Origin: a virus | Taxonomy: Duplodnaviria; Heunggongvirae; Uroviricota; Caudoviricetes | Strand: one strand, 5' to 3' | Virus record (IMG/VR): IMGVR_UViG_3300023184_000047 | Coordinates: 98,057 to 117,779 of that record | Length of the DNA: 19,723 nt | Shown here: piece after piece, positions 634 to 19,723 of the stretch | Position numbering within the stretch: the stretch's first letter is position 1 | How the letters are laid out: each line of letters begins with the position of its first letter | Translations under genes and position numbers: made by a program | Notes under the pieces: generated by a model | What the model was told of the DNA's origin: nothing | What the model saw: only the letters and a program-made list of their open reading frames with translations | Database searches by the model: none

Positions 634-642
634 ATATTTATA
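634..642 (+). promoter_or_regulatory. ATATTTATW motif (putative phage late promoter), copy 1
   Basis: ATATTTATA, intergenic, 22 nt before ATG 665. Confidence 0.65.
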
Positions 643-664
643 TGTAGACTTTACTACACAATAA

Positions 665-1453
665 ATGAAAGATAAATCTCTGTTAAACAAAGATCTAGTT
701 AAAGAATTCATGAAACACGTTATGAGTGAACTTAGACTAGACTCATTACCTAAAATAAAATTATCCAATGATTCCCAAGAGGCAGTTAAACATGGCTCTT
801 GGGGCGGATACAATACAGGAGACCAATCAATTCGTATAGTAATAGCTAAACGACACCCCGCTGATATATTTAGAACATTAGCTCATGAACTAGTTCACTA
901 TAAGCAAGATTTAACTGGACGTTTACAAGCGGGTGATGGTAAAACAGGTAGTGATGTTGAAAATGAAGCAAATTCTAGAGCAGCAATTATTATGCGTAAT
1001 TTTGCTGAAGCTAAGCCTAGTTTGTTTGAACATTTAATTACTGAATTAAGTTATGGTTTAGAAAATGCTTTACCTTTTACTTATATTGGAGGTAAATATA
1101 ATGAATATACTTTTAAAACAGATCAAAACGAATATAAAGTAACGTTCAAACCAGATGGTGAAAGTACTTATGAAAGAGTATATCATACTGTAAATAGACC
1201 TTTAGGAAAAAATTTTGATGATACTAAAGAAGGAAAACCACTTCAAATTAATGCTACTGTAATGAAAATTACATTGGATTTTATGAAACGAAATCCTGAT
1301 TTTACTATGATTTATATAGTACCAATAGATAGAAAACGATTTGATTTAGTTACAACATATATAAAAAACAATCTCCCCTCAAATTACTCCTTTGAAGCTG
1401 AATCTAATGATGGGGAAGATATAATTGCAATATACAACAAACCAGAGTTATGA
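665..1453 (+). CDS. Zincin-like (HExxH) metallopeptidase domain protein with a second unknown C-terminal domain
   Basis: RTLAHELVHYKQ (HExxH) followed about 20 residues later by ENEAN (candidate third ligand). LITE separates it from an unrelated C-terminal domain. Confidence 0.7.
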   Translation: MKDKSLLNKDLVKEFMKHVMSELRLDSLPKIKLSNDSQEAVKHGSWGGYNTGDQSIRIVIAKRHPADIFRTLAHELVHYKQDLTGRLQAGDGKTGSDVENEANSRAAIIMRNFAEAKPSLFEHLITELSYGLENALPFTYIGGKYNEYTFKTDQNEYKVTFKPDGESTYERVYHTVNRPLGKNFDDTKEGKPLQINATVMKITLDFMKRNPDFTMIYIVPIDRKRFDLVTTYIKNNLPSNYSFEAESNDGEDIIAIYNKPEL

Positions 1454-2016
1454 AAGAAACCCAATTAAAAAAACAATTTAGCGAACGTGATTTACAGCGT
1501 ATGCGAAATATAATAACCAAGAAGACCGGTGAAAAAACCGTAACATCTGTTGGTTATTCTAAAGCAGAAGAATTACACGAAGATGGTGATGTGTGGGAAG
1601 AAAACGGACGTACATGGACCCTTAAAAACGGTATCAAACGTAACGTTAGAAAAGTAGAATCGGCTGCTACACCTTTACTTTGTCCTAAATGTTCTAAATC
1701 TATGAATCATCACTTAGATATTAAAATGTATAATATTCACCAAATGTGCTTACATTGTGTTACAGATATGGAGAGTGATTTAAAAATGAAAGGTGAATAT
1801 GAAGAATATGAACGTAATATGATTTTAAATAACGCTCGTTATACTACCCGTAATATAGAATCTGGATTAGAGCAGTTTTTAGATGATATGGTAAATGAAT
1901 CGTATGCTATGGAAGATGGTACAATTCAAAATTGGTCAGGAGGTATTGATAGAACTGAAGTAAAACAATTTATTCTAGATAAGGTACAAAAAATAAAAGA
2001 CGCAACAGAACGTTAA
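1450..2016 (+). CDS. Hypothetical protein with 2x CxxC zinc finger
   Basis: CPKC...CLHC; ATGA overlap with the upstream stop. Confidence 0.75.
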   Translation: MKETQLKKQFSERDLQRMRNIITKKTGEKTVTSVGYSKAEELHEDGDVWEENGRTWTLKNGIKRNVRKVESAATPLLCPKCSKSMNHHLDIKMYNIHQMCLHCVTDMESDLKMKGEYEEYERNMILNNARYTTRNIESGLEQFLDDMVNESYAMEDGTIQNWSGGIDRTEVKQFILDKVQKIKDATER

Positions 2017-2024
2017 TATTTATA
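2016..2024 (+). promoter_or_regulatory. ATATTTATW motif copy 2
   Basis: ATATTTATA overlapping the stop at 2016, 21 nt before ATG 2046. Confidence 0.65.
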
Positions 2025-2045
2025 GTTAATTAATTCAATTAAATT

Positions 2046-2672
2046 ATGACATTAAACGAAGATTGTGGGTGTAATGGTCCTAAATTAATGCTTAATGAAG
2101 GCAAAAATGATATTTTACTTTCTGAGGGATTAAAATACCACATACAAGAAGGACAAATGTTAATTCAAAATATATATCGTCCCTTATCATCAAATTATTT
2201 TACTCTATTTAGAGAAGCTAGAGAACTATATAACATAGGTGCTCTTTCTGTTGTTGAAGACGATGCCGAATTGTTAGAATCAAATATTGGGGAATATGGG
2301 ATGTATAATGGTATTAGAGTACCACTTGACTATCCTATATCACTTGATGAATTAATTGATTTATACGAATCACAAGAAATAGATGAGGCCGAATTTAAAG
2401 GTAAAAAAGTATCTATTGGAAAACCCAAACGTGGTGGTTCTAAAAAATTCTATGTCTATGTTAAAGATGGGGATAAAGTTAAGAAAATATCATTTGGAGA
2501 CACAACAGGACTTTCAGCTAAACTAAACAACCCAAAAGCACGTCAAGCGTTTGCTGCTCGTCACGATTGTAAAAATAAAAAAGATAGAACTAAAGCATCA
2601 TATTGGTCCTGTCGTTTACCGCGATACGCCAAGCTATTAGGATTCAAAACAACATTCTCAGGATTTTGGTAA
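2046..2672 (+). CDS. Hypothetical protein; acidic N-half plus basic C-terminal ARHxC...YWSC module
   Basis: 208-aa ORF; C-terminal KKFYVYVK...FAARHDC...YWSCR module, recalled from other large-phage hypotheticals (not searched). Confidence 0.75.
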   Translation: MTLNEDCGCNGPKLMLNEGKNDILLSEGLKYHIQEGQMLIQNIYRPLSSNYFTLFREARELYNIGALSVVEDDAELLESNIGEYGMYNGIRVPLDYPISLDELIDLYESQEIDEAEFKGKKVSIGKPKRGGSKKFYVYVKDGDKVKKISFGDTTGLSAKLNNPKARQAFAARHDCKNKKDRTKASYWSCRLPRYAKLLGFKTTFSGFW

Positions 2673-3079
2673 TGATTAAATTAAACGACTTATTAAACGA
2701 GATATTATCTGAAAAACTTTGCCCTAAAGGTAAAGCATATGCTGAACGTCGTAAAAAAGCAGGTGAAGTACATTCTGCTTATTTGATGCTACGTGCTTCT
2801 AAGGTATGTAAAGGTACAATGAAGGAAGAAGAAGAACTTGAAGAATCTCTTCGTGATTGGGTTAAAGAAGAGTGGGTACGAATAGATACACAAGGTAACA
2901 TAGCAGGTCCTTGTGGTTCGATGAAAAAAGATAAACCAACAACTCGTTGTTTACCTCGTGCTAAAGCACAATCTTTATCTCAAGCTGAAAGAAAAGCAAC
3001 AGTTGCTAAAAAAGTAGCAGGAGATAAAAAAGGGAAACAGTATGTAAAAAATACTAAAAAAGCAGAATATAAAAAATGA
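2672..3079 (+). CDS. Hypothetical basic Cys-containing protein with MIKLxxLLxE leader
   Basis: True start is probably ATG 2672 (TAATG coupling with the upstream stop), not 2603. Sequence MIKLNDLLNE...LCPKG...LRDWVKEEW...GPCG...CLPRAK. Confidence 0.75.
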   Translation: MIKLNDLLNEILSEKLCPKGKAYAERRKKAGEVHSAYLMLRASKVCKGTMKEEEELEESLRDWVKEEWVRIDTQGNIAGPCGSMKKDKPTTRCLPRAKAQSLSQAERKATVAKKVAGDKKGKQYVKNTKKAEYKK

Positions 3080-3324
3080 TAAAATTAACTGACCTAATTA
3101 CTGAAAATAAATCTGAAGAATACCCACCATACATGTATTCACCTGTAGGATTTGGGTGTCATGTTTGTGAATACTATTTTAAAGAAGATGGTAAACATAA
3201 ATGTAGCAATAAAGAATATCAAGCATACAAAGGCACAGACGAATTAATAGATAACGAAGGAAATCAAATAAAAGATCCATCTAAATGGTGTTCAAACTGG
3301 TTTCACCCAAATATAGGTAAATGA
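3076..3324 (+). CDS. Small 4-Cys protein, HiPIP-like Cys pattern, MIKLxxLxxE leader
   Basis: C28-x2-C31-x11-C43-x28-C72 with CxxCxYY and WCxxW; ATGA overlap. Confidence 0.7.
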   Translation: MIKLTDLITENKSEEYPPYMYSPVGFGCHVCEYYFKEDGKHKCSNKEYQAYKGTDELIDNEGNQIKDPSKWCSNWFHPNIGK

Positions 3325-3587
3325 TAAACCCATATACAAATCTAGAAATTACAGATAAACACATAATTCGTGAATTTAGTGATGAAACTGATCTAATTGA
3401 ATTTATGTGGCATCGTGATGATGAGGATAGATTAGTTGAGGCACTTCATAATACAGATTGGCAAGTACAAATTGATAATGAATTACCAACATTGTTGAAT
3501 AAACCAATATTTATACCAAAGCACCAATACCATCGAGTAATTAAAGGTAATGGTAAATTACGCGTTAAAATCAATAAATTACCATAA
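3321..3587 (+). CDS. Small cupin-like protein
   Basis: WHRD...WQVQIDNELP...IFIPKHQYHRVIKG pattern: two His-containing motifs in a beta-rich 88-aa protein; ATGA overlap. Confidence 0.6.
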   Translation: MINPYTNLEITDKHIIREFSDETDLIEFMWHRDDEDRLVEALHNTDWQVQIDNELPTLLNKPIFIPKHQYHRVIKGNGKLRVKINKLP

Positions 3588-4300
3588 TGGAAGACATAAA
3601 CAAAAAGAAACTAAGCGGAGAAAAAACGGCTAATCAACTCATAGATAAACTTACATCAGGCTTATTTAAAAAATTATCAAATCATGAATTAGATGTTTTT
3701 AAACAACATTTAGCTAGTCGTTTAAAATTAGTTCAAGATGGACCTCCTTCAAATATGAATGAAAGTATGTTTAGTTCTAATTATCTTACTAATCTGCGTC
3801 CAAAAGGATCATGGAATGAACCAATAGAAGTAATGGTTTATAAAAATGAAGATGGGAGCTATAATGTATCTTTAAATGTGTATACTTTTGACGGAAGTGG
3901 AATGTCTCAAACACGCCGTCTTGCTTTAGGAGATAAAGCTATTCCTTTAAATGATTTTAGACCTGACTATGCTCTTAATAAAATTCAAACAGTCTATGAT
4001 TTAAAAGATCAAGATAAAAAAGAATTAGTAGACTTTATCAATGATATCCCTTCTCAATTACGTGCTATAGAAGTTGAAAAAGGTGAATCACCTCTTAGAG
4101 AAAGACTTAAAAATATGATTCGTAAAGAACTTATGGGTGATAATGAAGATGAAACTGTTCTTCAAGATAGATATATGCAAAAACTACATACATATAAAAA
4201 TATGAAGTTAAATAGAAGAAGCGAATTTGAAATTAATCAAGCTAGAAAAGAATTAATAGATGCTGCTAAAGCATACGGAATAGATTTACCTAAAAAATAA
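3587..4300 (+). CDS. Hypothetical protein
   Basis: 237-aa ORF, TAATG coupling; contains MNE and an LKNMIRKEL helix. Confidence 0.75.
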   Translation: MEDINKKKLSGEKTANQLIDKLTSGLFKKLSNHELDVFKQHLASRLKLVQDGPPSNMNESMFSSNYLTNLRPKGSWNEPIEVMVYKNEDGSYNVSLNVYTFDGSGMSQTRRLALGDKAIPLNDFRPDYALNKIQTVYDLKDQDKKELVDFINDIPSQLRAIEVEKGESPLRERLKNMIRKELMGDNEDETVLQDRYMQKLHTYKNMKLNRRSEFEINQARKELIDAAKAYGIDLPKK

Positions 4301-4309
4301 TACACCTTA

Positions 4310-7300
4310 ATGAAACCAATAGATAAATTTATATTACATGTTGTTCATAATTGGAAGAGTAAGTTAAATGAAGCTTATTCTCCTGCTGTTGTAACTCAAT
4401 TAATGAATAAATTTAAAGAGGAAGCAGATGATTTAAACATTGAAATTAATGATGAGCAATTAAAAAAATATATTGAACGTTTTGATGTTATAAAAAATTC
4501 TCCTAAAATTCAAGAAAAAGATTTATTCAAATACTCCCTTTCTCAATTAATTAAACTTGCTACTACTTCCAAAGGAGCAGAAACCCCAGAAGCAGCTGAC
4601 ATAACACCCGATGTAGTGTATCATAACGATGATGATACTATTATTGTTTATAATGGTTCTAAAGAGGATAATTGTATTCGATATGGCCAAGGTGAAAGAT
4701 GGTGTATAACTAGAGGATCATATTCTAATTATAGATATAGCCAAGATAGATCGTACCCAACATTTTATTTAGCTCAAAATAATAATCTCTCAACAGATGA
4801 TGCTTTAAGCTTTGTTGCTATTCAAGTCAGAAACCCTCAGACAACATCTGAAAACGAAAGATACGTTTATACAAATCGTAAAAACTCTCCTAACGAATCC
4901 CGACCAATGAGTTTTTCTCAATTAGAAAGAGAAGTTCCTTGGCTACGTGAAATCCCAAATGTACAGCAAGTACTTAAATATATACCATTAAATACAGGAG
5001 AAAAAATAACTCAACAATATAAAAATACTCCTATTGGAATCAGAGAATGGGTTAAATTACCATTTGATGTTAAACAACAATATTTAGTAGTTAGAAAAGG
5101 TAAGCAATTATTTAATGATGTTTCTAATGATGAATTTTTATCTAAATACTTACCTAAATTTCCTCAATTAGCTGAATTTATTGCTATTACTCCTGGTATA
5201 TTCCAAACTGAAGAATTATTAAAACATTTAGATGCTTTTTCAAATAACGATAGAAGATCAATCATAGCTAATATGAGAGATAAAGTAGAGTTATCTAATC
5301 TTAAATCTGAAGCTTTACCATTTGATGTTAAAAAATTACTAACAACATTAGGTAAATGGAATTTAGGTAATGATGAACGAATATACATTACTAAAGATGG
5401 GAATGCTATTGTTAAATTAAAATTAGGAGATGATATTACTGTGGGTGTTTATACAGCAGAAGATGATTACCCTAGCGTTAAATTAAATAAACGAACATCT
5501 AAATATTTAACTGATTATCCTGAATTAGATAAAATACCGTTTAAAAGCTTAATTAAATTATCTTCTGATGAAATAATTGATAAATCATTAGTTGACCAAA
5601 CATTAGAAGCAGCTAAAAACGACCCTAATTCTGCCATTCTGGTTAAAGATACAGATAATGGACAAATTGTTGTAGATTCAAATTCATTTGCTTCATATAA
5701 AGTAGATAATGGTAAAATAACTCAAATACCATTTGATAGTGAAGAAGTACAAGTTATATTTGATGAACAAACAGATAATGAAGGGTTTCAACAAAATGTA
5801 TTAAATTTATTTAATCAAAGAGGAAATATACCTGATCAAATAGATAGAGTAGGATTAACTTCTATTCTAAAATCAATTTCAAATGAAAAAAGAACAATTG
5901 GTACTACGGATTATTCTAATTTTCCTGTAGGTATATTAACAACGGATGAAGAAAATCCATTAATATTTACAGTTACTGCGCTTCCTAATACTCGAGGAGA
6001 AAGTCCTTTTTATGCTAAAGTAGTATATGGAACAAGAAATGACTGGAGAGATGGATCTACTAATGAACGTTTCACCCCAGAAATGACAAATGCTTATTTT
6101 GCTTATTTAAGAGGATTAAATCAAACATTTACAGATGAAGGTTTAATCAACGCTCTTTCATCATACGGAATGCCAACTGATTTTACAAAATCAATATTAA
6201 CAAATCCAAATTTACCTTTACAAGATACAAATATATATCGCCCAGCAGAATATCAAGGAACAGTATATTTAATTAATACTCAAAACCCAGCTGAAAGTAA
6301 AAAAATATCAGATACATCTGGAAAATTAATTAAAGCTAATATCAATTCAGCCGCCGCTAGACGTTTATTAGGAGCCCAACAAGCCGAACCAGAAGCACCA
6401 GCGGCTGAACCAGGAGCAGTAGTTCGTGTTCCCCGAGACAATGCGCCCCAAGCACCACCAGCTGGAGCTCCAGGAGAACGTAGAAGAGGTAGACCAGCAG
6501 GTGTAGCAAATGCTCCTCGTGAACCACAACAACGAGCTCAAGGTGATATTGATATACCAACTCAATTTAATAATAGAGGTTTAGAAGCTGGATTTACTAA
6601 TTTACCTAGAAATGATTTTAGAAGATTAAACGTTGATGATGCTACACAAGTACCTAGAATAGGAGATAGAGGAGCAACTGCTAGAGATAATCAATTAGGA
6701 AGAGCAGGCCAAGTAACTAGTGTTTTTAATGTAGGACCAAGTAAAATATACTTTATTAGATTAAATACTCCGGAACCAACAACAATAGCATCTATTAATA
6801 TCCAACCAGGAAATAGAAATTATGTTGTAGTTGGTAATAGATCTTATTCTTTAAATTCACCACGTGAATTAATGACATTTTTACAAAATAGAGATTTAGC
6901 AGAAGGTTTGAGAACGTCTATGTTTAAATTACATTTACAAGAAAATCCTTACATGATTGATGAAATTAAACAATTAAACAATATGAAAAATTTAAAAGAA
7001 GAATACAGTACTGAAGAGAGTTTTAAAGACTACTCTAACGATGCACTTACTGATATGATAATCAACTCATCTAGATTCGAAGGTAACGAAGAGGCAATTG
7101 AAAGAATTAAACAAGAATTAGCAAGACGTAAACAAGCTAAAAATGTAAACGAAGTAACTCCGGCTCAAGAAAGATACAGAGTTAAACCATCTACAAAACC
7201 AACACAGTTTAAACAAGATATAGCAGCCGCTAAAAAAATGATTGATGCTGGGAAATCTGAAAGAGAAGTGGTAGCAAAATATGGCCAAGCAGCTTTTAAC

Positions 7301-7588
7301 GCAGTGAATGCACAAAATCTAGGAGAATCTAAACCCAACTCAATGAAAGAAGATTTAAAAAAATATATTAGAGAAGCAATTCAAAAACGCCTAATGGAAA
7401 ACCAACCAGCGCCATCAAGAAAAACTGAACCTGGTGAAACAGAAACTATTCCTGATAGAGGTACTGAAGAAGAGAAAAAACGTCGTCGCATTGGAAACCC
7501 AAATGTTGAACCAAAACCAAAGGCAATGAACGAAAATGAACAAGAAATTATTAAACGAATTGTAGCACGTTTTAAATCTAAAAAATAA
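4310..7588 (+). CDS. Large (1092 aa) hypothetical protein, probable virion/internal protein
   Basis: Long uninterrupted ORF; N-terminal YGxGxxWC-type domain, Pro/Ala-rich linker with RRRGRP, and many hydrophobic-x-E sites in the C-terminal part. Confidence 0.85.
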   Translation: MKPIDKFILHVVHNWKSKLNEAYSPAVVTQLMNKFKEEADDLNIEINDEQLKKYIERFDVIKNSPKIQEKDLFKYSLSQLIKLATTSKGAETPEAADITPDVVYHNDDDTIIVYNGSKEDNCIRYGQGERWCITRGSYSNYRYSQDRSYPTFYLAQNNNLSTDDALSFVAIQVRNPQTTSENERYVYTNRKNSPNESRPMSFSQLEREVPWLREIPNVQQVLKYIPLNTGEKITQQYKNTPIGIREWVKLPFDVKQQYLVVRKGKQLFNDVSNDEFLSKYLPKFPQLAEFIAITPGIFQTEELLKHLDAFSNNDRRSIIANMRDKVELSNLKSEALPFDVKKLLTTLGKWNLGNDERIYITKDGNAIVKLKLGDDITVGVYTAEDDYPSVKLNKRTSKYLTDYPELDKIPFKSLIKLSSDEIIDKSLVDQTLEAAKNDPNSAILVKDTDNGQIVVDSNSFASYKVDNGKITQIPFDSEEVQVIFDEQTDNEGFQQNVLNLFNQRGNIPDQIDRVGLTSILKSISNEKRTIGTTDYSNFPVGILTTDEENPLIFTVTALPNTRGESPFYAKVVYGTRNDWRDGSTNERFTPEMTNAYFAYLRGLNQTFTDEGLINALSSYGMPTDFTKSILTNPNLPLQDTNIYRPAEYQGTVYLINTQNPAESKKISDTSGKLIKANINSAAARRLLGAQQAEPEAPAAEPGAVVRVPRDNAPQAPPAGAPGERRRGRPAGVANAPREPQQRAQGDIDIPTQFNNRGLEAGFTNLPRNDFRRLNVDDATQVPRIGDRGATARDNQLGRAGQVTSVFNVGPSKIYFIRLNTPEPTTIASINIQPGNRNYVVVGNRSYSLNSPRELMTFLQNRDLAEGLRTSMFKLHLQENPYMIDEIKQLNNMKNLKEEYSTEESFKDYSNDALTDMIINSSRFEGNEEAIERIKQELARRKQAKNVNEVTPAQERYRVKPSTKPTQFKQDIAAAKKMIDAGKSEREVVAKYGQAAFNAVNAQNLGESKPNSMKEDLKKYIREAIQKRLMENQPAPSRKTEPGETETIPDRGTEEEKKRRRIGNPNVEPKPKAMNENEQEIIKRIVARFKSKK

Positions 7589-8592
7589 TGGCTAGACTAT
7601 TAGAAGTAGAATACGAAAAAATATTCAAACCCGAAACAATGGCTTTGCTTAAAGGCAAGTCAGGTGAATCATTACGTGATACACTTGGTACTAAAAATCT
7701 CCAACAAGTAGTACAACGTTCAACTGAATTAGTTCCTGAAATTATAGAAGCCGAAGATGGGTATCGTGATCATTTAGAATTATTAGCGGCGGATATTGTA
7801 ACTAAAGCATATCCTATTATTGATTATGCTAATATTAAGATTGATGCTAAAATAGTAACAATGGGTGATCTTAACATTCCCCAAGAACCGGATGAAGTTG
7901 ATGTAGATGATACACCACCTGAAGCTGAACAAGCAAAACGTCGTATTATAAATGGTATCACACAAGGTGCTTCTATTAGAGGTTCATTTGCTTTTTTATT
8001 GTTTAGAGATTATTTAGATGCTTTTGATGAAGAATTAGTAGCAAAATATAATGAAATATTAAAATTATCGTTTGGTATTTACGATGACGAAAATGCAATC
8101 GCTATGTTATTAGCTATGATTGCACAACAACAAAATATGCCAGGGGGATCAAGTGAAATGGTTTATGATGAAGATGAAGAACAATTTATTATCAAAGCTA
8201 GAGCAATTTGCTTCCCAATGTTAGTACATGAAATAGTAAAAGGATTATATGAAATCGTTGGTACAGAAGGCTTTGGAGCCGATAAAGAAAAAAATCAAGC
8301 AATTGTCAATACTGTGGATAAGTTATCCAATGAACCTAACGATCTACGTTTTGGAAAATTTATCTATGATGCTATATCTGATTTATACAATAGTGGAAAT
8401 GTAAACGACCCTAGAGTTAGAGAATTATTGTTTACTGAAATATATAAACTCCCAGAAGAAGAATTTATCCCATTTATTGAAAATGCAATTAATGGAACTC
8501 TATCAAACGAACAAAAGAAATGGGCATCTGATACAATGCGTGATATTAAAGACGATCTTAAGAAAGACGATACTGGATTATCTGGATTGTAA
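7588..8592 (+). CDS. Hypothetical acidic protein
   Basis: 334-aa ORF, TAATG coupling; AKRRIINGITQGA and FPMLVHEIVKG motifs. Confidence 0.8.
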   Translation: MARLLEVEYEKIFKPETMALLKGKSGESLRDTLGTKNLQQVVQRSTELVPEIIEAEDGYRDHLELLAADIVTKAYPIIDYANIKIDAKIVTMGDLNIPQEPDEVDVDDTPPEAEQAKRRIINGITQGASIRGSFAFLLFRDYLDAFDEELVAKYNEILKLSFGIYDDENAIAMLLAMIAQQQNMPGGSSEMVYDEDEEQFIIKARAICFPMLVHEIVKGLYEIVGTEGFGADKEKNQAIVNTVDKLSNEPNDLRFGKFIYDAISDLYNSGNVNDPRVRELLFTEIYKLPEEEFIPFIENAINGTLSNEQKKWASDTMRDIKDDLKKDDTGLSGL

Positions 8593-8595
8593 TTA

Positions 8596-8604
8596 ATATT
8601 TATT
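8596..8604 (+). promoter_or_regulatory. ATATTTATW motif copy 3
   Basis: ATATTTATT, intergenic, 13 nt before ATG 8618. Confidence 0.65.
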
Positions 8605-8617
8605 ATAAAGCAATAAT

Positions 8618-9220
8618 ATGATCAATTTAGAAAATATACTTAACGAAAATAAATTTCCTGATTTAACTGGTGACGGTAAAGTAACTAGAGCCGATATATT
8701 AAAAGGTAGAGGAGTTAAAATGAGAGAAGATTTAGACGTAGGTCATCAAGACGATGAACCACATATGCTTAAAAGCGATGTTTATAGAATAGCTAAAATG
8801 GCTGCTATGTTATATAAGCAACTAGACAAATATGATAACATGGGAGAAGAAGTAGATTTTCCTCATTGGTGGCAAGCTAAAATAATTAAAGCATATGATT
8901 ATTTACAAGGTGCTTACGGATATTTAGATGGTGAAGAAAAAGTAGCAGCTATTGACTATATGAGCCAAATGAATGAAGTACAAGGTGAAGAATTAAATCA
9001 CGATATATCTCTTATAGGTAGTACATTAAAGAAAATCGAAACTATGATTGATTTTGGTAGAGATCAAGATGTTGATGTTGAAGAAGGATTGCAAACCGTA
9101 CTTAACATCTTAATTGATATTCAACATAAATTAGAAACAGATACTAAAGATGCTGCTAGTCTAGGTGGAGCTAGTAAGTTTTATCAAATGGAGAATATAT
9201 TAAAACAAATGGGTAAATAA
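8618..9220 (+). CDS. Hypothetical multi-module protein with MINLxxILxE leader and EF-hand/dockerin-like loop
   Basis: [10 protein letters not shown] then [12 protein letters not shown]; second module [12 protein letters not shown]...[10 protein letters not shown]. Confidence 0.8.
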
Positions 9221-9705
9221 TGAAATTTAAAACCAAACAAGAATTAGAAGATTTTATTCGTGGGCGTGTACGTCAACGTTTACAAAAAACTGACACTGCT
9301 GAATATCAAGGTGATTCTAATTCTCCTATGAATTTAATGTTAGCTCGTTTTCCTGAACTAAGACAAACATTAGAAAAACTATTAACAATACAATATAGGT
9401 TGTTTGTTAATGATATTGAATGGGTTGCACCTAAACCAACTACATTTAAAATTGTTTTACCTAATAAACAATATTTTAACTTAATATGGAATACGGAAGA
9501 CTTTATTGCTAAAGTAGCAGGTATGAAATATGATATGCTCACACTTAAAGAACGTGAAAGAGCAACTAAAGCAATATCTACACTACTTCAATATGGTCCG
9601 ATAAATGCAAACCTATCACCGGAGGAATTAGCTCAACAAGAACTAACTCCAGCTAAAGGGGAAGCAGCTGCTCCACCACCGTTATCTCCAGAAGAATTAA
9701 GCTAA
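9220..9705 (+). CDS. Hypothetical protein
   Basis: 161-aa ORF, TAATG coupling; WVAPKPTTFKI motif; LSPEEL repeated twice at the C-terminus. Confidence 0.8.
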   Translation: MKFKTKQELEDFIRGRVRQRLQKTDTAEYQGDSNSPMNLMLARFPELRQTLEKLLTIQYRLFVNDIEWVAPKPTTFKIVLPNKQYFNLIWNTEDFIAKVAGMKYDMLTLKERERATKAISTLLQYGPINANLSPEELAQQELTPAKGEAAAPPPLSPEELS

Positions 9706-9706
9706 A

Positions 9707-9738
9707 TTTGGCTCCCTAAGGGAGCCTTATTACATTTA
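9707..9738 (+). promoter_or_regulatory. Bacteroidota-type primary-sigma promoter (-33 TTTG / -7 TAnnTTTA)
   Basis: TTTG 9707-9710, 20-nt spacer, TACATTTA 9731-9738, upstream of ATG 9761. The Bacteroidota consensus is TTTG-N19-21-TAnnTTTG. Confidence 0.6.
9710..9730 (+). terminator. GC-rich hairpin, probable intrinsic terminator of the upstream operon
   Basis: GGCTCCC-TAA-GGGAGCC perfect 7-bp stem directly after stop 9705, followed by TTATT (imperfect U tract). Confidence 0.6.
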
Positions 9739-9760
9739 AACCCTAATTTAACATTACGTT

Positions 9761-10540
9761 ATGAGTAAAAAGAAAAGATTATTTTTCGATATTGAAACAA
9801 GTCCGAACGTTGGATTTTTCTGGCAATCAGGATACAAACTAAATATCCCATACACCAATATTATTAAAGAAAGAGCTATTATTTGCATTTGCTATAAGTG
9901 GGCAGATGAAGATAAAGTATATTCTTTACAATGGGATAAAAATCAAGATGACAAAACCATGTTAGAGAAATTCATGGCCGTAGCTAACGAAGCTCATGAA
10001 TTAGTAGGACATAATGGGGATCGATTCGATTTACCTTGGATTAGAACACGCTGTTTATTTCATGGTATTCCGTGTTTTCCAAACTACACTACACTTGACA
10101 CTTTAAAACACGCAAGATCTAAATTTAGATTTAATAGCAATCGTTTAGATTATATTGCTAAATATTTAGGTGTTGGAGAAAAATCTGAAACCGGTGGTTT
10201 TGATTTGTGGAGAAACATCGTATTAGATAACGATAAAGACGCAATGAACACAATGGTTGATTATTGTAAAAATGATGTTGTCATACTTGAAAAAGTATAT
10301 AACCATATTAAAAACTATGTACCACATAAAACACATTATGGTGCTTTAGAGACAGGAGAAAAAACATGTTGTCCTGAATGTGGATCAACTGATTTAAGAC
10401 ATTCACAAACTCGTTATTCTGCTGCTGGGACTCCACGTATTCAAATGCAATGTAATGATTGTCACAAATACCATACTGTAGCTAGTAGAACATATGATGC
10501 AATAATTGCTAAACAGTTTGAAGGGGAAGTAGAAGAGTAA
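9761..10540 (+). CDS. DEDD/DnaQ-like (RNase_H_2-type) 3'-5' exonuclease with C-terminal zinc ribbon
   Basis: ExoI FFDIETSP, ExoII GHNGDRFDLPWI, ExoIII YCKNDV; CPEC...CNDC. Confidence 0.9.
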   Translation: MSKKKRLFFDIETSPNVGFFWQSGYKLNIPYTNIIKERAIICICYKWADEDKVYSLQWDKNQDDKTMLEKFMAVANEAHELVGHNGDRFDLPWIRTRCLFHGIPCFPNYTTLDTLKHARSKFRFNSNRLDYIAKYLGVGEKSETGGFDLWRNIVLDNDKDAMNTMVDYCKNDVVILEKVYNHIKNYVPHKTHYGALETGEKTCCPECGSTDLRHSQTRYSAAGTPRIQMQCNDCHKYHTVASRTYDAIIAKQFEGEVEE

Positions 10541-10549
10541 ATATTTATT
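10541..10549 (+). promoter_or_regulatory. ATATTTATW motif copy 4
   Basis: ATATTTATT immediately after stop 10540, 13 nt before ATG 10563. Confidence 0.65.
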
Positions 10550-10562
10550 GTAAAATATTTGT

Positions 10563-11006
10563 ATGGACAATTTTGACTTAAAGCGCTTTCTAGTTGAAAA
10601 CAAAATGACTAGAAACTCAAGACTTATAAACGAACAACCTGAACCAGAAGGAATACCAGCTGATGACCCATTAGCACAAATACCAGCTGTACCTGCTGAA
10701 ACACCATCAGAACCATCAGGTGAAATTGATAAAGAAACAGCTAAAGAATTAATATTCGATACTAAAGGTAAATTTTTTACAGTAACCTTTATTAAAAAAG
10801 ATGGTAGCGAACGTGTAATGAATGCTCGTTTAGGTGTTAAGAAATACTTAAAAGGAGGAACACTAGCATACGACCCAGCTGAATTTAATTACATTACAGT
10901 ATATGACATGGGTGCTAAAGGATATAGAATGGTTAACGCTAACACCATTAAAAACCTTAAAATCGGTAAAAACGAATACGTTATACCAACAGCAGTATCT
11001 GAATAA
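10563..11006 (+). CDS. SH3-barrel / WYL_2-like domain protein with N-terminal leader and Pro-rich linker
   Basis: FFTVTFIKKDGSERVMNARLG...VYDM...GYRMVN resembles phage WYL_2/SH3-fold proteins (F.F.KKDG..R.M); preceded by MDNFDLKRFLVE...LINE and a P/E/A-rich linker. Confidence 0.6.
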   Translation: MDNFDLKRFLVENKMTRNSRLINEQPEPEGIPADDPLAQIPAVPAETPSEPSGEIDKETAKELIFDTKGKFFTVTFIKKDGSERVMNARLGVKKYLKGGTLAYDPAEFNYITVYDMGAKGYRMVNANTIKNLKIGKNEYVIPTAVSE

Positions 11007-11012
11007 CATACA

Positions 11013-11053
11013 GACCGATTCATAGCCGGTTGCTCGAAAGAGATAAAATATGA
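11013..11053 (+). ncRNA. Putative structured RNA (H-type pseudoknot with inserted GAAA hairpin), family unknown
   Basis: P1 GACCG(11013-17)/CGGTT(11027-31); loop TCATA(11020-24) complementary to TATGA(11049-53); CTC-GAAA-GAG(11033-42); A-rich linker ATAAAA; locally GC-richer than its surroundings. Confidence 0.45.
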
Positions 11054-11060
11054 CAGCTGT

Positions 11061-11093
11061 GGCGTCAATCATTTGGATTGGCGCCCTTTTTTT
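11061..11093 (+). terminator. Intrinsic (Rho-independent) terminator
   Basis: GGCGTCAATC(11061-70)/GATTGGCGCC(11076-85) 10-bp stem with one G-U pair, 5-nt loop, then C and T7 (11087-93). Confidence 0.8.
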
Positions 11094-11103
11094 CGTATAT
11101 TTA
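11072..11103 (+). promoter_or_regulatory. Bacteroidota-type primary-sigma promoter
   Basis: TTTG 11072-75 (in the terminator loop), 20-nt spacer, TATATTTA 11096-11103, before ATG 11124. Confidence 0.6.
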
Positions 11104-11123
11104 ACAGTTCAAAAATTATAAAC

Positions 11124-12464
11124 ATGAGTAAAAACATTGTAATTGTAGGTGCCGGTGTAGCAGGTATTAATGCTGCAACTAAACTAGTAGATAACAACTA
11201 TAAAGGTAAAATCACTATTATTGATATGGGAAAAGATCCCCATAAACGATTACCAAGTGAAGTAATGACTGGAATGTTAGGTGCAGGAGGTTGGTCTGAT
11301 GGTAAATTAACTTATCACACTGCTATTGGAGGTCAATTATCTAAATACTGTGGTGAAGATAAGGCCATGGAGTTAATGGATCAAGTTATTACTAACTTTA
11401 AACGTTTTCACCCTAAACCTGAAGAAGTACAATGTTCAAATCCAGTTGCTGAACCTGATTTTATTAAACCACACTTTGGTTTACGTTTATTTCCTGTATG
11501 GCATGTTGGAACTGATTATCTATTAGAAATTGCTAAAAATTGGTATAAGTATTTAGTTGATAATGGAGTTGAATTTGAATGGGAAACTAAAGTGATAGAC
11601 ATTGACTTTAATAAGAAAATAGTATATACTTCAATCCCAACACCTTATATGTTAGGTGGAGATGAAACAACAGAAGGACATCACGGACTACTTTATGATG
11701 AACTTATTTTTGGTGTAGGTAAATCAGGAATTGACTTTGGTAAAAAATTAGCTGAAAAATATGACTTACCAACTGAACCTAAATCAGTACAAATTGGTGT
11801 TCGTTTTGAAGCACCACAACACCACTTCCAAAAACTAATCGATGTATCATATGACTTTAAATTATATAGAAAATTTGAAGATAAAGGAGTATCACTACGT
11901 TCATTCTGTACTAATAATAATGCAGCTTATGTTGCAGTAGAAGAAACATACGGAAACTACTCATACAATGGTCATGCTAAAAAAGATGAGAAGTATAGAA
12001 ACGATATGACTAACTTTGGTATTATAATGGAAGTAAACGGAATTGAAGATCCATTTACTTGGAGTAGAAATTTAGTTAAGATGTTACAAATTGATAATAA
12101 AGGATTATATTACTCTCCTTCACGTACCCCATCATTAACATCAGAAGGAGATCATGTAGAAGCAACTCAAATTAATGATTATGTGATGGATGAAGTAAGA
12201 GAAGCATTTGAAGGTTATTTTAAATACATTGATGATTTCATCAGTGGAATGAAAGAAATCTTCCCAACATTAAAAGACGATTGGGGTATGTACATACCTG
12301 AAGTAAAATATCTATCACCTGAGCCACTTGTTGATTATACCAACTTAGCCCTGACCAAGTATCCTAACGTACATTTTGTTGGTGATGCACTTTCCGCTAG
12401 AGGTATAACAGTAAGTGGTGCACAAGGGATTTATGTAGCAGAATATATTTTGAGATATCAATAA
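11124..12464 (+). CDS. FAD-dependent oxidoreductase (COG2509-like uncharacterised FAD dehydrogenase)
   Basis: Rossmann IVIVGAGVAG at the N-terminus, GAGGWSDGKL, RSFCTN, and C-terminal FVGDA...GITVSGAQG. Start placed at ATG 11124 because the track's TTG 11073 lies inside the terminator/promoter. Confidence 0.88.
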   Translation: MSKNIVIVGAGVAGINAATKLVDNNYKGKITIIDMGKDPHKRLPSEVMTGMLGAGGWSDGKLTYHTAIGGQLSKYCGEDKAMELMDQVITNFKRFHPKPEEVQCSNPVAEPDFIKPHFGLRLFPVWHVGTDYLLEIAKNWYKYLVDNGVEFEWETKVIDIDFNKKIVYTSIPTPYMLGGDETTEGHHGLLYDELIFGVGKSGIDFGKKLAEKYDLPTEPKSVQIGVRFEAPQHHFQKLIDVSYDFKLYRKFEDKGVSLRSFCTNNNAAYVAVEETYGNYSYNGHAKKDEKYRNDMTNFGIIMEVNGIEDPFTWSRNLVKMLQIDNKGLYYSPSRTPSLTSEGDHVEATQINDYVMDEVREAFEGYFKYIDDFISGMKEIFPTLKDDWGMYIPEVKYLSPEPLVDYTNLALTKYPNVHFVGDALSARGITVSGAQGIYVAEYILRYQ

Positions 12465-12479
12465 TTTTTCGTACCTTTA
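12449..12479 (+). promoter_or_regulatory. Bacteroidota-type primary-sigma promoter
   Basis: TTTG 12449-52, 19-nt spacer, TACCTTTA 12472-79, before ATG 12484. Confidence 0.5.
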
Positions 12480-12483
12480 ATCT

Positions 12484-12943: not shown

Positions 12944-12944
12944 T

Positions 12945-13475: not shown

Positions 13476-13496
13476 TAAATGTAAACCCAAATAATA

Positions 13497-14822: not shown

Positions 14823-14843
14823 GATATACATAAAATGTTACAT

Positions 14844-14874: not shown

Positions 14875-14876
14875 GT

Positions 14877-14885: not shown

Positions 14886-14898
14886 TATAAAATAATAT

Positions 14899-16482
14899 AT
14901 GAGTGAACAACAAGATATAAAGGAGATAATTAAACAGGAATACATTAAATGTATGACTGACCCTGCTCACTTTATGAAAAAATATTGTATGATTCAACAC
15001 CCAACAAGGGGAAGAATACAATTCAATTTATACCCATTTCAAGATAAGGTTCTATACCAATTCCAAAAAAATAACTATAACGTTGTATTAAAATCAAGAC
15101 AGTTAGGTATCTCAACATTAGTAGCTGGTTTTTCTTTATGGTTAATGTTATTTCAAAGAGATAAAAATATACTTTGTATCGCTACAAAACAGGAAACTGC
15201 TAAAAACATGGTAACTAAAGTACGATTTATGTACGATAATTTACCTTCCTGGTTAAAAGGAGCCGAGAAACCCTTGGAGAACAACAAGCTCTTACTTAAA
15301 TTACCTAATGGTTCTCAAGTTAAAGCAGTATCGGCAGCAGGGGATGCAGGTCGTTCAGAAGCCGTTTCTTTACTTATAATAGATGAGGCCGCGTTCATTG
15401 ATAGTATACATGAAATATTTGCTTCGGCTCAACAAACGTTAGCAACTGGAGGAGGATGTATAGCATTATCTACTCCAAATGGTACGGGAAATTGGTTCCA
15501 CCAAACATGGCAGAAAGCTGAAATAGGAGCTAATTCATTTGTTCCAATTAGGTTAAAATGGAATGTACATCCTGAACGAGATCAAGTATGGCGTGATCAA
15601 CAAGATGCTGATTTAGGGCTTAGAATGGCTGCTCAAGAGTGTGATTGCGATTTTAGTACTTCTGGAGATACAGTATTTGAAGCCGACGTAATGCAATGGG
15701 TTGAAGCTAATTTAGCTGACCCACTTGAAAAACGAGGAGTAGACGGAAATTTATGGATATGGGAACAACCAGATTACAGTCGATCATACTTAGTAACAGC
15801 TGACGTTGCTAGAGGAGATGGAAAAGATTACTCAGCTTGTCATGTTTTTGATTTAGAAACCTCAACTCAAGTAGCCGAATATAAGGGGCAAATAGGAACT
15901 CGTGATTATGGACATTTATTAGTTGGGTTAGCAGCAGAATATAATGATGCTTTATTAGCAATTGAAAATGCAAATGTTGGTTGGGATACTGTGCAAACAG
16001 CTATTGATAGAGGATATAAAAATTTATATTACTCACCTAAAACTGAAGCATATACATCAGACCAATGGGCAAGACGATCAGAAAATCTAGACAGTTTAGT
16101 AGCTGGTTTTACAACATCAGTTAAAACTCGCCCTTTAATGATTGAAAAGTTTAGAGAATATACTCATGAAAAAGCATGTGTTATTCGTTCTAAACGTTTA
16201 TTAGATGAAATGAAAGTATTTATCTGGAAGAATGGTAAAGCACAAGCTCAAGAAGGATATAATGACGATTCCGTAATGGCTTTCAGTATGGGACTTTACT
16301 TAAGAGATACAGCATTAAGATTTAGAAAATCTAACATAGAATACGATAGAACAAATTTAATGAATATGACTATGGATAGAGGTACCATGAATGCTATAAA
16401 CGCACAAGGGCAACAAATGGCTAATCCATGGAAAATACAAGCAGACCACGGTACTGAAGACATAACGTGGTTATTAAGATAA
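14899..16482 (+). CDS. terL: Terminase large subunit (T4 gp17-like)
   Basis: Q-motif LYPFQ, Walker A VLKSRQLGIST, Walker B LLIIDEAAF, coupling motif STPNG, RNase H-like nuclease ADVARGDGKDYS ... DDSVM. Confidence 0.96.
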   Translation: MSEQQDIKEIIKQEYIKCMTDPAHFMKKYCMIQHPTRGRIQFNLYPFQDKVLYQFQKNNYNVVLKSRQLGISTLVAGFSLWLMLFQRDKNILCIATKQETAKNMVTKVRFMYDNLPSWLKGAEKPLENNKLLLKLPNGSQVKAVSAAGDAGRSEAVSLLIIDEAAFIDSIHEIFASAQQTLATGGGCIALSTPNGTGNWFHQTWQKAEIGANSFVPIRLKWNVHPERDQVWRDQQDADLGLRMAAQECDCDFSTSGDTVFEADVMQWVEANLADPLEKRGVDGNLWIWEQPDYSRSYLVTADVARGDGKDYSACHVFDLETSTQVAEYKGQIGTRDYGHLLVGLAAEYNDALLAIENANVGWDTVQTAIDRGYKNLYYSPKTEAYTSDQWARRSENLDSLVAGFTTSVKTRPLMIEKFREYTHEKACVIRSKRLLDEMKVFIWKNGKAQAQEGYNDDSVMAFSMGLYLRDTALRFRKSNIEYDRTNLMNMTMDRGTMNAINAQGQQMANPWKIQADHGTEDITWLLR

Positions 16483-16486
16483 AAAA

Positions 16487-16498: not shown

Positions 16499-18361
16499 AT
16501 GATAGATACATCCTTATTTGGTAGATTAAAACGATTATTCTCAAACGACGTAATCATTAGAAACGTTGGCGGGAGCCAAATACAAGTTATAGACAGCGAT
16601 CACATTCAAGCAACTGGTGTGGTTCAAACCAATATGTATCCTGAGAGATACCAACGTATCTATACAGGGGGTTTAGGTACATATATTGGTAATGCCCCCT
16701 ACTCTAACTTCACAGTATTAAGACCTCAATTATATAACGATTATGAGGTAATGGATGGTGATCCAATCGTTGCTTCTGTATTAGATATCGTTGCTGACGA
16801 ATCTACACTTAAAAACGGGGCAGGTGAGGTATTAGCTATTAAATCCTCAGACGAAAACATACAAAGAATATTATATAATTTATTCTATGATGTACTTAAT
16901 ATAGAATTTAACCTTTGGGGTTGGATTCGTTCAATGTGTAAGTATGGTGATTTTTATTTACACCTACACATTGCTGAAAAATATGGTGTATATCAAGTTA
17001 TTCCACTTAATGTTTACAACGTACTTAGAGAAGAAGGAATAGATCCTAAAAATCCATCTTATGTTCGATTTAGAGTTGAACCAAATGCTTCTTATACAGG
17101 TGTATTAGGTGGGTTAGATAATAATGATATGGTTTTTGAAAACTATGAAGTAGCCAATTTTAGACTCCTAGGAGACTACAACTTCTTACCATACGGAAGA
17201 TCATACATCGAACCAGCTCGTAAAATATTTAAACAATTAGCGTTGATGGAAGATGCGATGTTAATTCACCGTATATTAAGAGCACCACAACGTAGAGTTT
17301 ATTATGTGGATACAGGAAATGTTCCACCAAATGAAATTCCTGCATTTATGGAAAAACTTAAAGGACAAACTCAACGTACTCCTATGGTTGACCCAAAAAC
17401 AGGTGAATACAATTTACGTTATAATATGATGACTGTAAATGAAGATTTTTACATACCTGTTAGAGGCGGAAATACATCAACTAAAATTGATACTTTACCT
17501 GGTCTTGAATATAACGCAATCGAAGACGTTGTTTACTTAAGAGATAAAATGCTATCTGCTATGAAAGTGCCAAAAGCATTTTTAGGATATGAAGCAGATG
17601 TTGAAGGTAAATCTACATTAGCACAACAAGATATTCGTTTCGCTCGTACAATTGAACGTATTCAACGTATTGTTGTATCTGAATTAACTAAAATAGCATT
17701 AGTTCATTTATATGCTCAAGGGTATACTGATGAAAATTTAACAAACTTTGAATTAGAATTAACTACTCCATCTATTGTTTACGATCAAGAAAGAGTAGCA
17801 TTAATGAAGGAAAAAGTTGATTTAGCTAAACAAATTATAGATACAGGTTTGTTCCCAACAGACTACATTTATGATTATATATTCCATATGAGTGAAGACA
17901 AATATGATGATATGAGAGATTTAGTTGTTGAAGATAAAAAACGTATGTTTAGATTATCTCAAATCGAAAACGAAGGTAATGACCCTGTTACAAGTGGAGA
18001 ATCATATGGAACACCACATGATCTTGCTTCATTATATGGTAAAGGAAGAAACAATATGGGTGTACCACCAGCATATGATGAGGATGTACCTGTTGGAAGA
18101 CCACAAGAAAAAACATCAGTTTACAATACACAAAAACGCATATTAGGTAAAGACCCACTTGGTAAATCTATAGAATTAAACCCAGATGGTCCAAATATGC
18201 CAAATCCTAAAGGTGGATCACCTTTGGCACTTGAAACAACTAAAGCAGTATTTGCTCAAAATAAAAAAATGCTTAGTGAAATGTTTACTAAAACAACGGT
18301 ATTTAATAAAGAAGAACAAGGTTCCTCATTATTAGATGAATCAAATCTTAAAGATTTATAA
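16499..18361 (+). CDS. Portal protein (T4 gp20-like)
   Basis: SYIEPARKIFKQLALMEDAMLIHRILRAPQRRVYYVDTGNVPP and EDFYIPVRGG...IDTLPG match the conserved T4 gp20-family blocks; adjacent to terL. Confidence 0.93.
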   Translation: MIDTSLFGRLKRLFSNDVIIRNVGGSQIQVIDSDHIQATGVVQTNMYPERYQRIYTGGLGTYIGNAPYSNFTVLRPQLYNDYEVMDGDPIVASVLDIVADESTLKNGAGEVLAIKSSDENIQRILYNLFYDVLNIEFNLWGWIRSMCKYGDFYLHLHIAEKYGVYQVIPLNVYNVLREEGIDPKNPSYVRFRVEPNASYTGVLGGLDNNDMVFENYEVANFRLLGDYNFLPYGRSYIEPARKIFKQLALMEDAMLIHRILRAPQRRVYYVDTGNVPPNEIPAFMEKLKGQTQRTPMVDPKTGEYNLRYNMMTVNEDFYIPVRGGNTSTKIDTLPGLEYNAIEDVVYLRDKMLSAMKVPKAFLGYEADVEGKSTLAQQDIRFARTIERIQRIVVSELTKIALVHLYAQGYTDENLTNFELELTTPSIVYDQERVALMKEKVDLAKQIIDTGLFPTDYIYDYIFHMSEDKYDDMRDLVVEDKKRMFRLSQIENEGNDPVTSGESYGTPHDLASLYGKGRNNMGVPPAYDEDVPVGRPQEKTSVYNTQKRILGKDPLGKSIELNPDGPNMPNPKGGSPLALETTKAVFAQNKKMLSEMFTKTTVFNKEEQGSSLLDESNLKDL

Positions 18362-18395: not shown

Positions 18396-19247
18396 GTGAA
18401 ACTAAAACACAATAAATTTAAGAACACTGGTATTTTATTTGAACTACTTACCAGGCAGATCACCGCAGATATTATGTCTAATAAAGAGTCGGCGGCTGTT
18501 GGTATTGTTAAAAAATATTTTTCCAAGGGAGAAATTGGAAAGGAATACAAATTATATCAAGCTTTAACTAAAGTTGCTTCTTTAAACGAAGCAAAAGCTG
18601 AAAGTATTATATCTTCTACAATTAAGTTAGCAGAACGTTTAAACCGTACTGCATTACGTAAAGAAAAATATAACCTTATTAAGGAACTTAAACAACATTA
18701 TGATTTAGAGGATTTTTTTAAAGCAAAAATTCATAATTATAAGGCGCATGCTTCTGTTTATAATCTAATTGAAGCTCAAATATCATTAGAATTTATAGAT
18801 CCATCATTTATCATTGATAATAAAGTAACTTTACTTGAATTCTTAACAAAACAAGATATAGACAAAGATAAAGTTGAAAATCAAGTAATGCTTGAATATG
18901 CTTCTCAAGATAAAGCTACACGTGCTTTGATCTCTAAAATAATGGTTGAAAAATTTAATGAAAAGTATGCTAATTTAATACCGGAACAACGTGAAGTATT
19001 AAGAGTATATATTAATAAAATTTCTAATACTGTTTCTTTAAAAGAATTTATTAATGAGAATTTAGAAGGTATTAAAAATTCATTAGAATTATTACAACAT
19101 AAAGTAGTAGATCAAAGAACTCAAATTAAACTTAAAGAATTAGCATCTATAATTAAACCTTTAGATAAAACTGAACAAGTTAAAGACGAAGATATACTAA
19201 ATATCCTCCAGTTTCATGAATTAATACATGAAATTAAAGCTCTATGA
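18396..19247 (+). CDS. Helical hypothetical protein in the head-assembly position
   Basis: 283-aa ORF with GTG start (KHNKFKNTGILFELL...), directly after the portal. Confidence 0.8.
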   Translation: MKLKHNKFKNTGILFELLTRQITADIMSNKESAAVGIVKKYFSKGEIGKEYKLYQALTKVASLNEAKAESIISSTIKLAERLNRTALRKEKYNLIKELKQHYDLEDFFKAKIHNYKAHASVYNLIEAQISLEFIDPSFIIDNKVTLLEFLTKQDIDKDKVENQVMLEYASQDKATRALISKIMVEKFNEKYANLIPEQREVLRVYINKISNTVSLKEFINENLEGIKNSLELLQHKVVDQRTQIKLKELASIIKPLDKTEQVKDEDILNILQFHELIHEIKAL

Positions 19248-19723
19248 TACCTGACAACATTAAAAAAATAATAGACGAAATACTTGATGAAACACTATCC
19301 GAAATGGATGGTGCTACTAGCACTACAGCTAGTGCTGGGGGTGGGTACAATAGTAAATTTTTTCTTAAAAAACTTGACGAAAAAACACCTACATTAGCCG
19401 CAGGAACAGCAAACATCAGTTCATATACTAAAGATGGATTTAAGAAAGTTCCAGAAGGAATGCCATCTGACTCTAAAGTATATGATTACAAACAGTTTCC
19501 ATCGGAACCAAAACCAAAATCTATTAAACTTTATAAAGAAGAACAATTAAATGAGATATCTTATCGTCGTTTTAATGAAAATGTTTCTAAAGTAACACCT
19601 GAACGTAAAATTACTCGCGCATTATCTGAAGTAAAAAAACGCATTAGAGAAATAGAGCAAGTAATTGAATATTCTTCTAGATTAAAAGACGAAAATATAA
19701 TAAAAAAGGAGACATTTTGGGTA
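19244..19723 (+). CDS. Hypothetical protein (candidate prohead core protein), 3'-truncated; missing from the ORF track
   Basis: ATG 19244 (ATGA overlap), open to the window end: MIPDNIKKIIDEILDETLSEMDGATSTTASAGGG...EQLNEISY...KETFWV. Confidence 0.8.
   Translation, partial: MIPDNIKKIIDEILDETLSEMDGATSTTASAGGGYNSKFFLKKLDEKTPTLAAGTANISSYTKDGFKKVPEGMPSDSKVYDYKQFPSEPKPKSIKLYKEEQLNEISYRRFNENVSKVTPERKITRALSEVKKRIREIEQVIEYSSRLKDENIIKKETFWV

Follow-up and report, generated by a model that had tools for sequence, protein, structure and literature searches.

How do otherwise unrelated phage proteins come to begin with nearly the same ten residues, and what does such a shared leader do? The question is raised by a stretch of 19,723 nucleotides (the window, by which we mean the whole stretch of DNA analysed), the right-hand end of a 117.8-kb contig of an uncultured virus (IMG/VR record IMGVR_UViG_3300023184_000047; 32% GC, approximately 71% complete) whose genes lie nearly all on one strand. 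The source is a T4-like, Flavobacterium-type, uncultured phage. Family matches bore out the T4-like portal and terminase named in a first-pass annotation of the window (Table 1), and among cultured phages the nearest relative is Flavobacterium phage vB_FspM_immuto (160 kb; host Flavobacterium sp. LMO8; hereafter immuto). Three proteins of the window, named here by the position of their first nucleotide (2672, 3076 and 8618), carry the leader, which has the consensus M-I-K/N-L-x-D/N-I/L-L-x-E and which we call class A. We consider it likely that this decapeptide is a lineage-specific capsid-targeting propeptide that works as its counterpart does in T4. The mechanism itself is known from T4; what is new is this lineage's version of it and the cargo that it serves.

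Results

A portable leader at the start of unrelated proteins

The first-pass annotation had described three otherwise unrelated proteins with a shared leader; its coordinates proved exact, and by BLAST the mature parts of 2672, 3076 and 8618 are mutually unrelated and fall into separate families. The start codons of 2672 and 3076 overlap the preceding stop codon (coupled stop/start), and the 8618 start lies 22 nucleotides past an ATATTTATT motif; the coupled overlaps, together with hundreds of database homologues that begin likewise, make the three start calls credible. In the 2672 protein, a second L-x-E site (ILSE) ends at 2713 and is followed by two small Cys-containing modules. The N-termini of its 842 homologues retain MIKLxDILxEILxE, in which Glu14 is invariant and some members have Asp10. 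PHROG matches of this protein start only past the leader, and in its AlphaFold model (mean predicted local distance difference test score, pLDDT, 69.5) the leader forms a separate N-terminal helix of residues 4-14. The 3076 family has 239 homologues. The 8618 domain lies, in immuto, inside an 841-residue protein; its mature start in the window (8645-8710) has the look of an EF-hand/dockerin calcium loop, with 83% identity over 24 residues to a stretch of pelagiphage HTVC027P.

The class-A leader is a discrete, portable, protein-level module confined to the starts of open reading frames (ORFs). In the contig, the strict motif occurs at three N-termini and at no internal position in approximately 35,000 residues, and a looser, T4-like pattern fits 4 of 192 N-termini (0.14 expected). 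A back-translated pattern found 18 matches on the coding strand of five large relatives, every one of them an ORF start; the opposite strand gave no match, nor did a backwards control pattern. Loci around related portals contain 40 distinct leader proteins, whose mature parts fall into 25 or more families unrelated to one another. In immuto, class-A leaders were located at 24569 and 103366. Glu10 is present in 20/20 distinct MIKL- proteins of relatives, against a background of 7.7%. When IMG/VR was scanned blindly with the coding pattern, at least 120 stretches were returned, compared with 4 for the backwards pattern, and 95 of 102 pattern matches were at ORF starts. In an alignment of 94 leader proteins, M1, I2 and E10 are invariant and K3, L4, D6 and L8 are conserved at 90% or more, and conservation stops at position 10 (at residue 14 in the 2672 family). 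Leu4 (87/91) and Ile/Leu7 (89/91) predominate at two positions where the search pattern permitted other residues. Synonymous codons of the leader vary freely (D6, for example, is GAC in 48 cases and GAT in 43), which indicates that selection acts on the peptide.

On a 6.2-kb IMG/VR contig (L179:175-2013), four small genes in a row encode products beginning MIKLKDLLxE, among them a NUDIX hydrolase; such an arrangement is reminiscent of the variable loci for internal proteins in T-even phages. A further N-terminus, MVKIENFINE at 73068 of genome G000, fits the loose pattern but was rejected as a probable chance match, far from any late motif.

Correspondence with the T4 capsid-targeting sequence

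In T4, the prohead protease gp21 cuts past L/I-X-E, and the ten N-terminal residues of IPIII are enough for packaging (PMC9026906). Mutagenesis of the T4 capsid-targeting sequence (CTS) linked residues 4 and 7 to targeting and residues 8 and 10 to processing (PMC9026906), and the internal proteins of T-even phages have only the tag in common (PMC9026906, PMC3012670, PMC5694885). The earlier description of the T4 CTS as a ten-residue sequence cut after (I/L)-x-E agrees with this work and with the N-termini that we read from NC_000866: MKTYQEFIAE/A in ipII and ipIII, MAKINELLRE/S in gp24, ...QLLIE/T in gp21 and MLKE/QLIAE/A in gp22 (here and below, a slash follows the Glu of a site), as well as several L/I-x-E sites within the 65-residue propeptide of gp23. 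The class-A consensus is conserved at exactly T4 positions 4, 7, 8 and 10, and 7/10 of its positions are identical or similar to the gp24 propeptide. The 2672 protein also resembles the T4 internal proteins in being small and very basic.

Association with T4-type head genes

Close relatives, with portals 87-95% identical to that of the window, encode PF03420 (the gp21-type, S77 prohead protease; 1.9e-30; gp070 in immuto) and PF07068. Their own head proteins bear sites of the same kind: the protease begins ...LLIE, as found also in T4 gp21, the scaffold candidate begins ...LLKE/A, and the capsid protein begins MENLNxLLE/, with LLE, ILE and VVE following before the Gp23 domain. A gp21-like protease had been anticipated downstream of the portal, and in relatives it is located 2.7-3.6 kb past that gene, with protease, scaffold and Gp23-type capsid protein all within 2.7-9 kb. 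As a separate observation, a DUF5856 protein (L017:16902-17270; PHROG 'starvation-inducible transcriptional regulator') lies between protease and scaffold in the relatives' head module.

PF03420 was detected on 20/32 leader records from the blind scan and on 4/24 controls (Fisher p = 9e-4), and the leader records that lack it are all at most 68% complete. Among complete records (at least 90%), the figures were 7/7 for leader records and 2/10 for controls (Fisher p = 0.002). The control set consisted of 4 backwards-pattern records, which by themselves were too few (PF03420 on 1) and to which 20 records of matched size, retrieved with an N-terminal pattern unrelated to the leader, were hence added. 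A co-fold of a relative's protease with residues 1-50 of the 2672 family scored 0.00, a value obtained without controls that counts neither way.

Leader swaps and further leader classes

The looser leaders that the first-pass annotation had listed at 10563, 13497 and 19244 are real, but they are not degenerate copies of class A: the first two represent separate classes, B and C, and the third probably belongs to a different kind of protein. The class-B leader occurs on at least seven unrelated mature families in the source contig, immuto and relatives. It comprises 22-24 residues (M-x-N-F-D-L-K-K-F-L-x-E-N-K-L-T-x-N-S-...-L-x-E) and was located at 10563-10634 in the window, at C1:76480 in G000 and at 1803, 103806, 117631 and 118632 in immuto, where one class-B protein is annotated as a PduO-type adenosyltransferase. 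The class-C leader (MKxSELKxxIKE...) is found on 11 unrelated mature families, and its immuto members include ORFs at 102294, 113188 and 123355. A class-D leader (...F-I-x-E-A-x-R-M-Q-K-L-A-G-I...) was observed on 12 unrelated proteins or mature families, with sites in G001 at L017:97-477, 7317-8315, 16114-16563 and 16569-16895; in the head module, two class-D genes form an insertion that separates the protease gene from the scaffold gene. The position of the 19244 gene is conserved in relatives and equals the place of T4 gp67/gp68, and its product is likely to be a prohead-core protein rather than cargo, as judged from position and motif only.

Exchange of leaders in front of the same mature protein was seen in two families. 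Homologues of 8618 present the same mature motif behind a class-A leader (10 residues), a class-B leader (22 residues, ending ILLE) or a class-C-like leader (ending PLSE), and the motif begins 2-4 residues past the Glu of L-x-E. For 3076, the swaps were traced in 51 listed homologues, those whose conserved mature motif could be placed; most of these have the class-A leader, and in several the leader is MKKEFNITxW...LKE, which stops a few residues short of that mature start. Such swaps speak for modularity only.

Cargo and evidence from cultured phages

Pfam searches of the 94 leader proteins identified Zeta-toxin-like/AAA_33 kinases (9), DUF5872 (4), NUDIX, RNase_T, ART-PolyVal, cell-wall hydrolase and NT5C domains, which begin a few residues past the leader. 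Homologues of one Zeta-like kinase in cultured T4-like phages carry tags specific to their lineage. Those of Yersinia phage JC221 (MKSFLEF...IDE/A) and Morganella phage Mm5 (a similar sequence) are of the T4 style, and other L-x-E tags occur in Ralstonia phage RsoM2USA (MTTFKEYLLE/G) and pelagiphage HTVC008M (MIPFILKE/G). The kinase domain of Agrobacterium phage Atu_ph07, a T4-core jumbo phage, lies inside gp53, which was detected in purified virions by 31 unique peptides (45.5% coverage), as was its neighbour gp54 by 15 peptides (PMC6102473, Table S5). RsoM2USA ORF257, from the same gene array as the kinase, forms an abundant virion band (PMC8504454).

Two further observations concern the cultured jumbo phages Atu_ph07 and RsoM2USA. 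Atu_ph07 gp53 (87 kDa) was most abundant in a gel band far lower than its size, which hints at processing. RsoM2USA ORFs 254-258 (locus L356) and Atu_ph07 gp053-gp054 (L357) are arrays with short N-termini ending in L-x-E, and they adjoin ART-like (YRG motif) and Zeta-like kinase domains.

Genomic setting of the leader genes

On the coding strand, the motif ATATTTATW occurs 26 times, compared with 5 times on the opposite strand, and most copies precede a start codon by 12-31 nucleotides; this strand bias and this placement lead us to regard it as behaving like a late-type promoter element. It also precedes the terminase, portal and baseplate genes. The six leader genes of the window had been assigned to ATATTTATW operons, and all six were confirmed behind the motif; the accompanying statement that enzymes lack the leader likewise stood, there being none on 9761, 11121 and 12945, of which 9761 has a Bacteroidota-type TAnnTTTG instead. 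In the source genome, leader genes are closer to ATATTTATW than other genes are (median 170 versus 3910 nucleotides, p = 0.003). In the loci of the blind scan, the motif lies upstream of approximately 13% of ORFs, and it was no commoner upstream of leader genes than before neighbouring genes. ATATTTATW (copies at 634-18378) contains the T4 late promoter TATAAATA in reverse-complement form, but it is read on the sense strand. Ahead of the gene for a DNA-polymerase exonuclease subunit, at 9706-9760, a GC-rich hairpin (GGCTCCCTAAGGGAGCC) is followed by TAAATTTG; this arrangement looks like a terminator and then a Bacteroidota-type -7 promoter element.

Two further proteins belong to the late block. 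For the 1092-residue protein listed in Table 1, an Atlas look-up returned unnamed viral clusters only. The 21-residue N-terminal segment of this protein is conserved in G001, and the sequence suggests that it may be a processed head protein; its counterpart in immuto includes the 8618 domain. The other protein, of 334 residues with an isoelectric point (pI) of 4.4 (7588-8592), has no family matches.

Table 1. Features of the window relevant to the leader proteins (positions count from the first nucleotide of the window).
Feature	Position	Strand	Remarks
ATATTTATW late-type promoter motif (putative)	2016..2024	+	heads operon 2046-2672-3076-3321
Further ATATTTATW copies	start at 634, 3507, 8596, 10541, 13466, 14877, 16487, 18370		14877, terminase; 16487, portal
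Very basic protein, 135 residues (pI 9.7)	2672..3079	+	class-A leader MIKLNDLLNE at 2672-2701
Cys-rich protein, 82 residues	3076..3324	+	class-A leader MIKLTDLITE at 3076-3105
Protein of 1092 residues	4310..7588	+	no family found; late block; N-terminus ends KLNE/A at residue 21
Acidic protein, 200 residues	8618..9220	+	class-A leader at 8618-8647; EF-hand/dockerin-like loop directly after
Protein of 147 residues	10563..11006	+	class-B leader of 24 residues, 10563-10634, two L/I-x-E sites; WYL_2/SH3-like domain after
Acidic protein, 209 residues	13497..14126	+	class-C leader 13497-13556, ending KLSE
Large terminase subunit, T4 type	14899..16482	+	PF03237; phrog_2
Portal protein, T4 gp20-type	16499..18361	+	PF07230, 3e-67
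Open-ended gene two genes past portal	19244..19723	+	N-terminus with three tandem I/L-x-E sites

Discussion

The view that the class-A leader is a capsid-targeting propeptide rests on its CTS-like architecture, its portability, the swaps that join at, or a few residues from, the Glu of L/I-x-E, the co-occurrence with the prohead protease, the same sites on known substrates and the presence of a cargo homologue in virions. On the analogy of T4, the amphipathic N-terminal helix would dock a newly made late protein on the scaffolding core of a T4-type prohead; a gp21-type (S77) protease would then cut past the Glu of L/I-x-E, that is, Glu10, with Glu14 as a second site in the 2672 family; and the mature protein would remain in the head and exit with the DNA. 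The cargo so delivered might have an anti-defence role. The first-pass annotation had proposed a lineage-specific tag of this kind. The capsid-targeting part of that proposal fits the computational tests, but the tag is not confined to the source phage, being widespread in uncultured aquatic T4-like phages.

Several observations weigh against this view. The residue past the presumed cut is often Ile or Val in class-A proteins, whereas it is mostly Ala in T4. The closeness of leader genes to ATATTTATW was not significant in G001 or immuto by a crude distance measure, so that the enrichment expected behind this motif held in the source genome only. One class-A gene in relatives stands among nucleotide-metabolism genes, although its immuto equivalent has a late motif 21 nucleotides upstream, and some cargo families (deoxyribonucleotidase, kinases, exonuclease) would fit ordinary cytoplasmic enzymes as well. 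Within tail and baseplate modules, some class-C-like N-termini may be nothing more than amphipathic helices. The leader is tied to T4-type heads, but this association cannot by itself single out the protease among head and late genes, and its controls are few. PF03420 was not found on the source contig, which ends 1.36 kb and two genes past the portal, before the protease's place in relatives; this negative is therefore uninformative. Finally, our literature search found no virion proteomics for immuto or other Flavobacterium T4-like phages; nor did it find a published description of the class-A leader.

Among other explanations, the leader could be a shared helix that serves a partner unrelated to the capsid, whether for oligomerisation or docking in a cytoplasmic complex, as a signal to a chaperonin or protease adaptor, or for localisation. 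It is indeed short and forms an amphipathic helix, several of the cargo enzymes could act in the infected cell, phages of the leader-bearing group encode GroEL/GroES, and the co-occurrence test cannot separate the protease from other lineage-specific genes. We nevertheless regard this explanation as unlikely, since it leaves unexplained the invariant Glu10 with Leu8, which make up the T4 protease site, the joining of swaps at or just past the Glu, the same motif on capsid protein, scaffold and protease, and the T4-type CTS on cargo orthologues of T-even-like phages together with the virion presence in Atu_ph07. If instead the protease removed a propeptide whose task is to keep the cargo inactive until maturation (zymogen control), with incorporation mediated by the mature part, the potential toxicity of many cargo domains (Zeta-toxin-like kinases, ADP-ribosyltransferase, nucleases) would make sense, as would catalytic domains that start only a few residues past the leader. 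A single helix of ten residues, however, is unlikely to inhibit 25 or more unrelated folds, in T4 nothing beyond the first ten residues is needed for targeting (PMC9026906), and the conserved set extends beyond the cleavage positions to the T4 targeting positions 4 and 7, all of which renders zymogen control improbable.

Selection at the level of DNA, with the leader as a translation-initiation enhancer or a cassette-recombination hotspot and the peptide as a by-product, would account for leader codons that are AT-rich, as is favoured near start codons, and for module exchange at the leader boundary, where 30 shared nucleotides could aid recombination. Yet synonymous sites are free while the amino acids are fixed, AT-richness does not account for Asp6, Leu8 and Glu10, and the other leader classes do the same job with quite different DNA; we thus find this explanation very improbable. 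To chance resemblance in an AT-rich genome we give virtually no credence, even though Lys, Ile, Asn and Leu are common at 32% GC: the complete lack of internal occurrences, Glu10 in all 20 MIKL- proteins and the excess in IMG/VR over the reversed control (at least 120 stretches versus 4) already refute it.

The existence of several leader types raises the additional idea that A, B, C and D are distinct address codes, each with a docking place of its own, in site or in layer, on the scaffolding core. We consider this doubtful. Were it true, a leader swap would tune the copy number, position or ejection order of its cargo, and uncultured T4-like phages would possess a sorting code for a large arsenal of injected effectors.

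If the class-A leader does work as the T4 tag does, a ten-residue rule would mark the proteins that uncultured aquatic T4-like phages carry in their heads and deliver together with their DNA. The effectors of the first minute of infection would then include Zeta-toxin-like kinases and ADP-ribosyltransferase, NUDIX and nuclease domains, along with many proteins of unknown function. Such a rule would offer a sequence-only route to candidate host-takeover or anti-defence proteins in phages that cannot be grown, and the leaders would supply naturally occurring tags with which to load foreign proteins into the capsids of Bacteroidota phages.

Comparison with known systems

The closest parallel is the T4 CTS, which is likewise N-terminal, approximately ten residues long and hydrophobic at positions 4 and 7, with L/I8 and Glu10 forming the cleavage site. 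Each tags proteins that have nothing else in common and are often small or basic, and each goes with a T4-type set of portal, scaffold, capsid protein and S77 protease, of which, for class A, the portal is encoded on the source contig and the remainder is known from relatives. The two differ in sequence (MIKLxDLLxE versus MKTYQEFIAE) and in reach, the class-A leader serving dozens of cargo families and the T4 tag a handful. In its phages, class A coexists with three or more other leader classes, which are interchangeable; the closest cultured relative of the source phage infects Flavobacterium. The T4 tag is proven by experiment; for the class-A leader, the role is predicted from sequence.

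The giant phages phiKZ, 201phi2-1 and SPN3US have head and ejection proteins with long propeptides, which diverged gp21 homologues cut after S/A/G-x-E (PMC5694885). There too, a protease of the gp21 type processes numerous internal head proteins, paralogues have identical N-termini and prohead targeting is presumed (PMC5694885); those propeptides, however, mostly exceed 100 residues and have another P3 preference, whereas the class-A, -B and -C leaders comprise 10-24 residues and end in a T4-like L/I-x-E. The cargo overlaps in its domains (ADP-ribosyltransferase, Zeta-toxin-like kinase, NUDIX, nucleases) with T4 Alt, with Atu_ph07 gp53/gp54 and with the polyvalent proteins, which are described as injected along with the DNA (PMC7824862). 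In contrast to one giant fusion, the class-A cargo proteins are mostly small, single-domain and separately tagged. The leader also shares with Sec, Tat and lipoprotein signal peptides an N-terminal position, portability and removal by a dedicated protease, the last as proposed here. We rejected a signal peptide as an explanation: the consensus MIKLxD(I/L)LxE has no hydrophobic core of at least ten residues, no twin-arginine motif and no lipobox. Unlike those signals, the class-A leader is short and amphipathic and contains two acidic residues.

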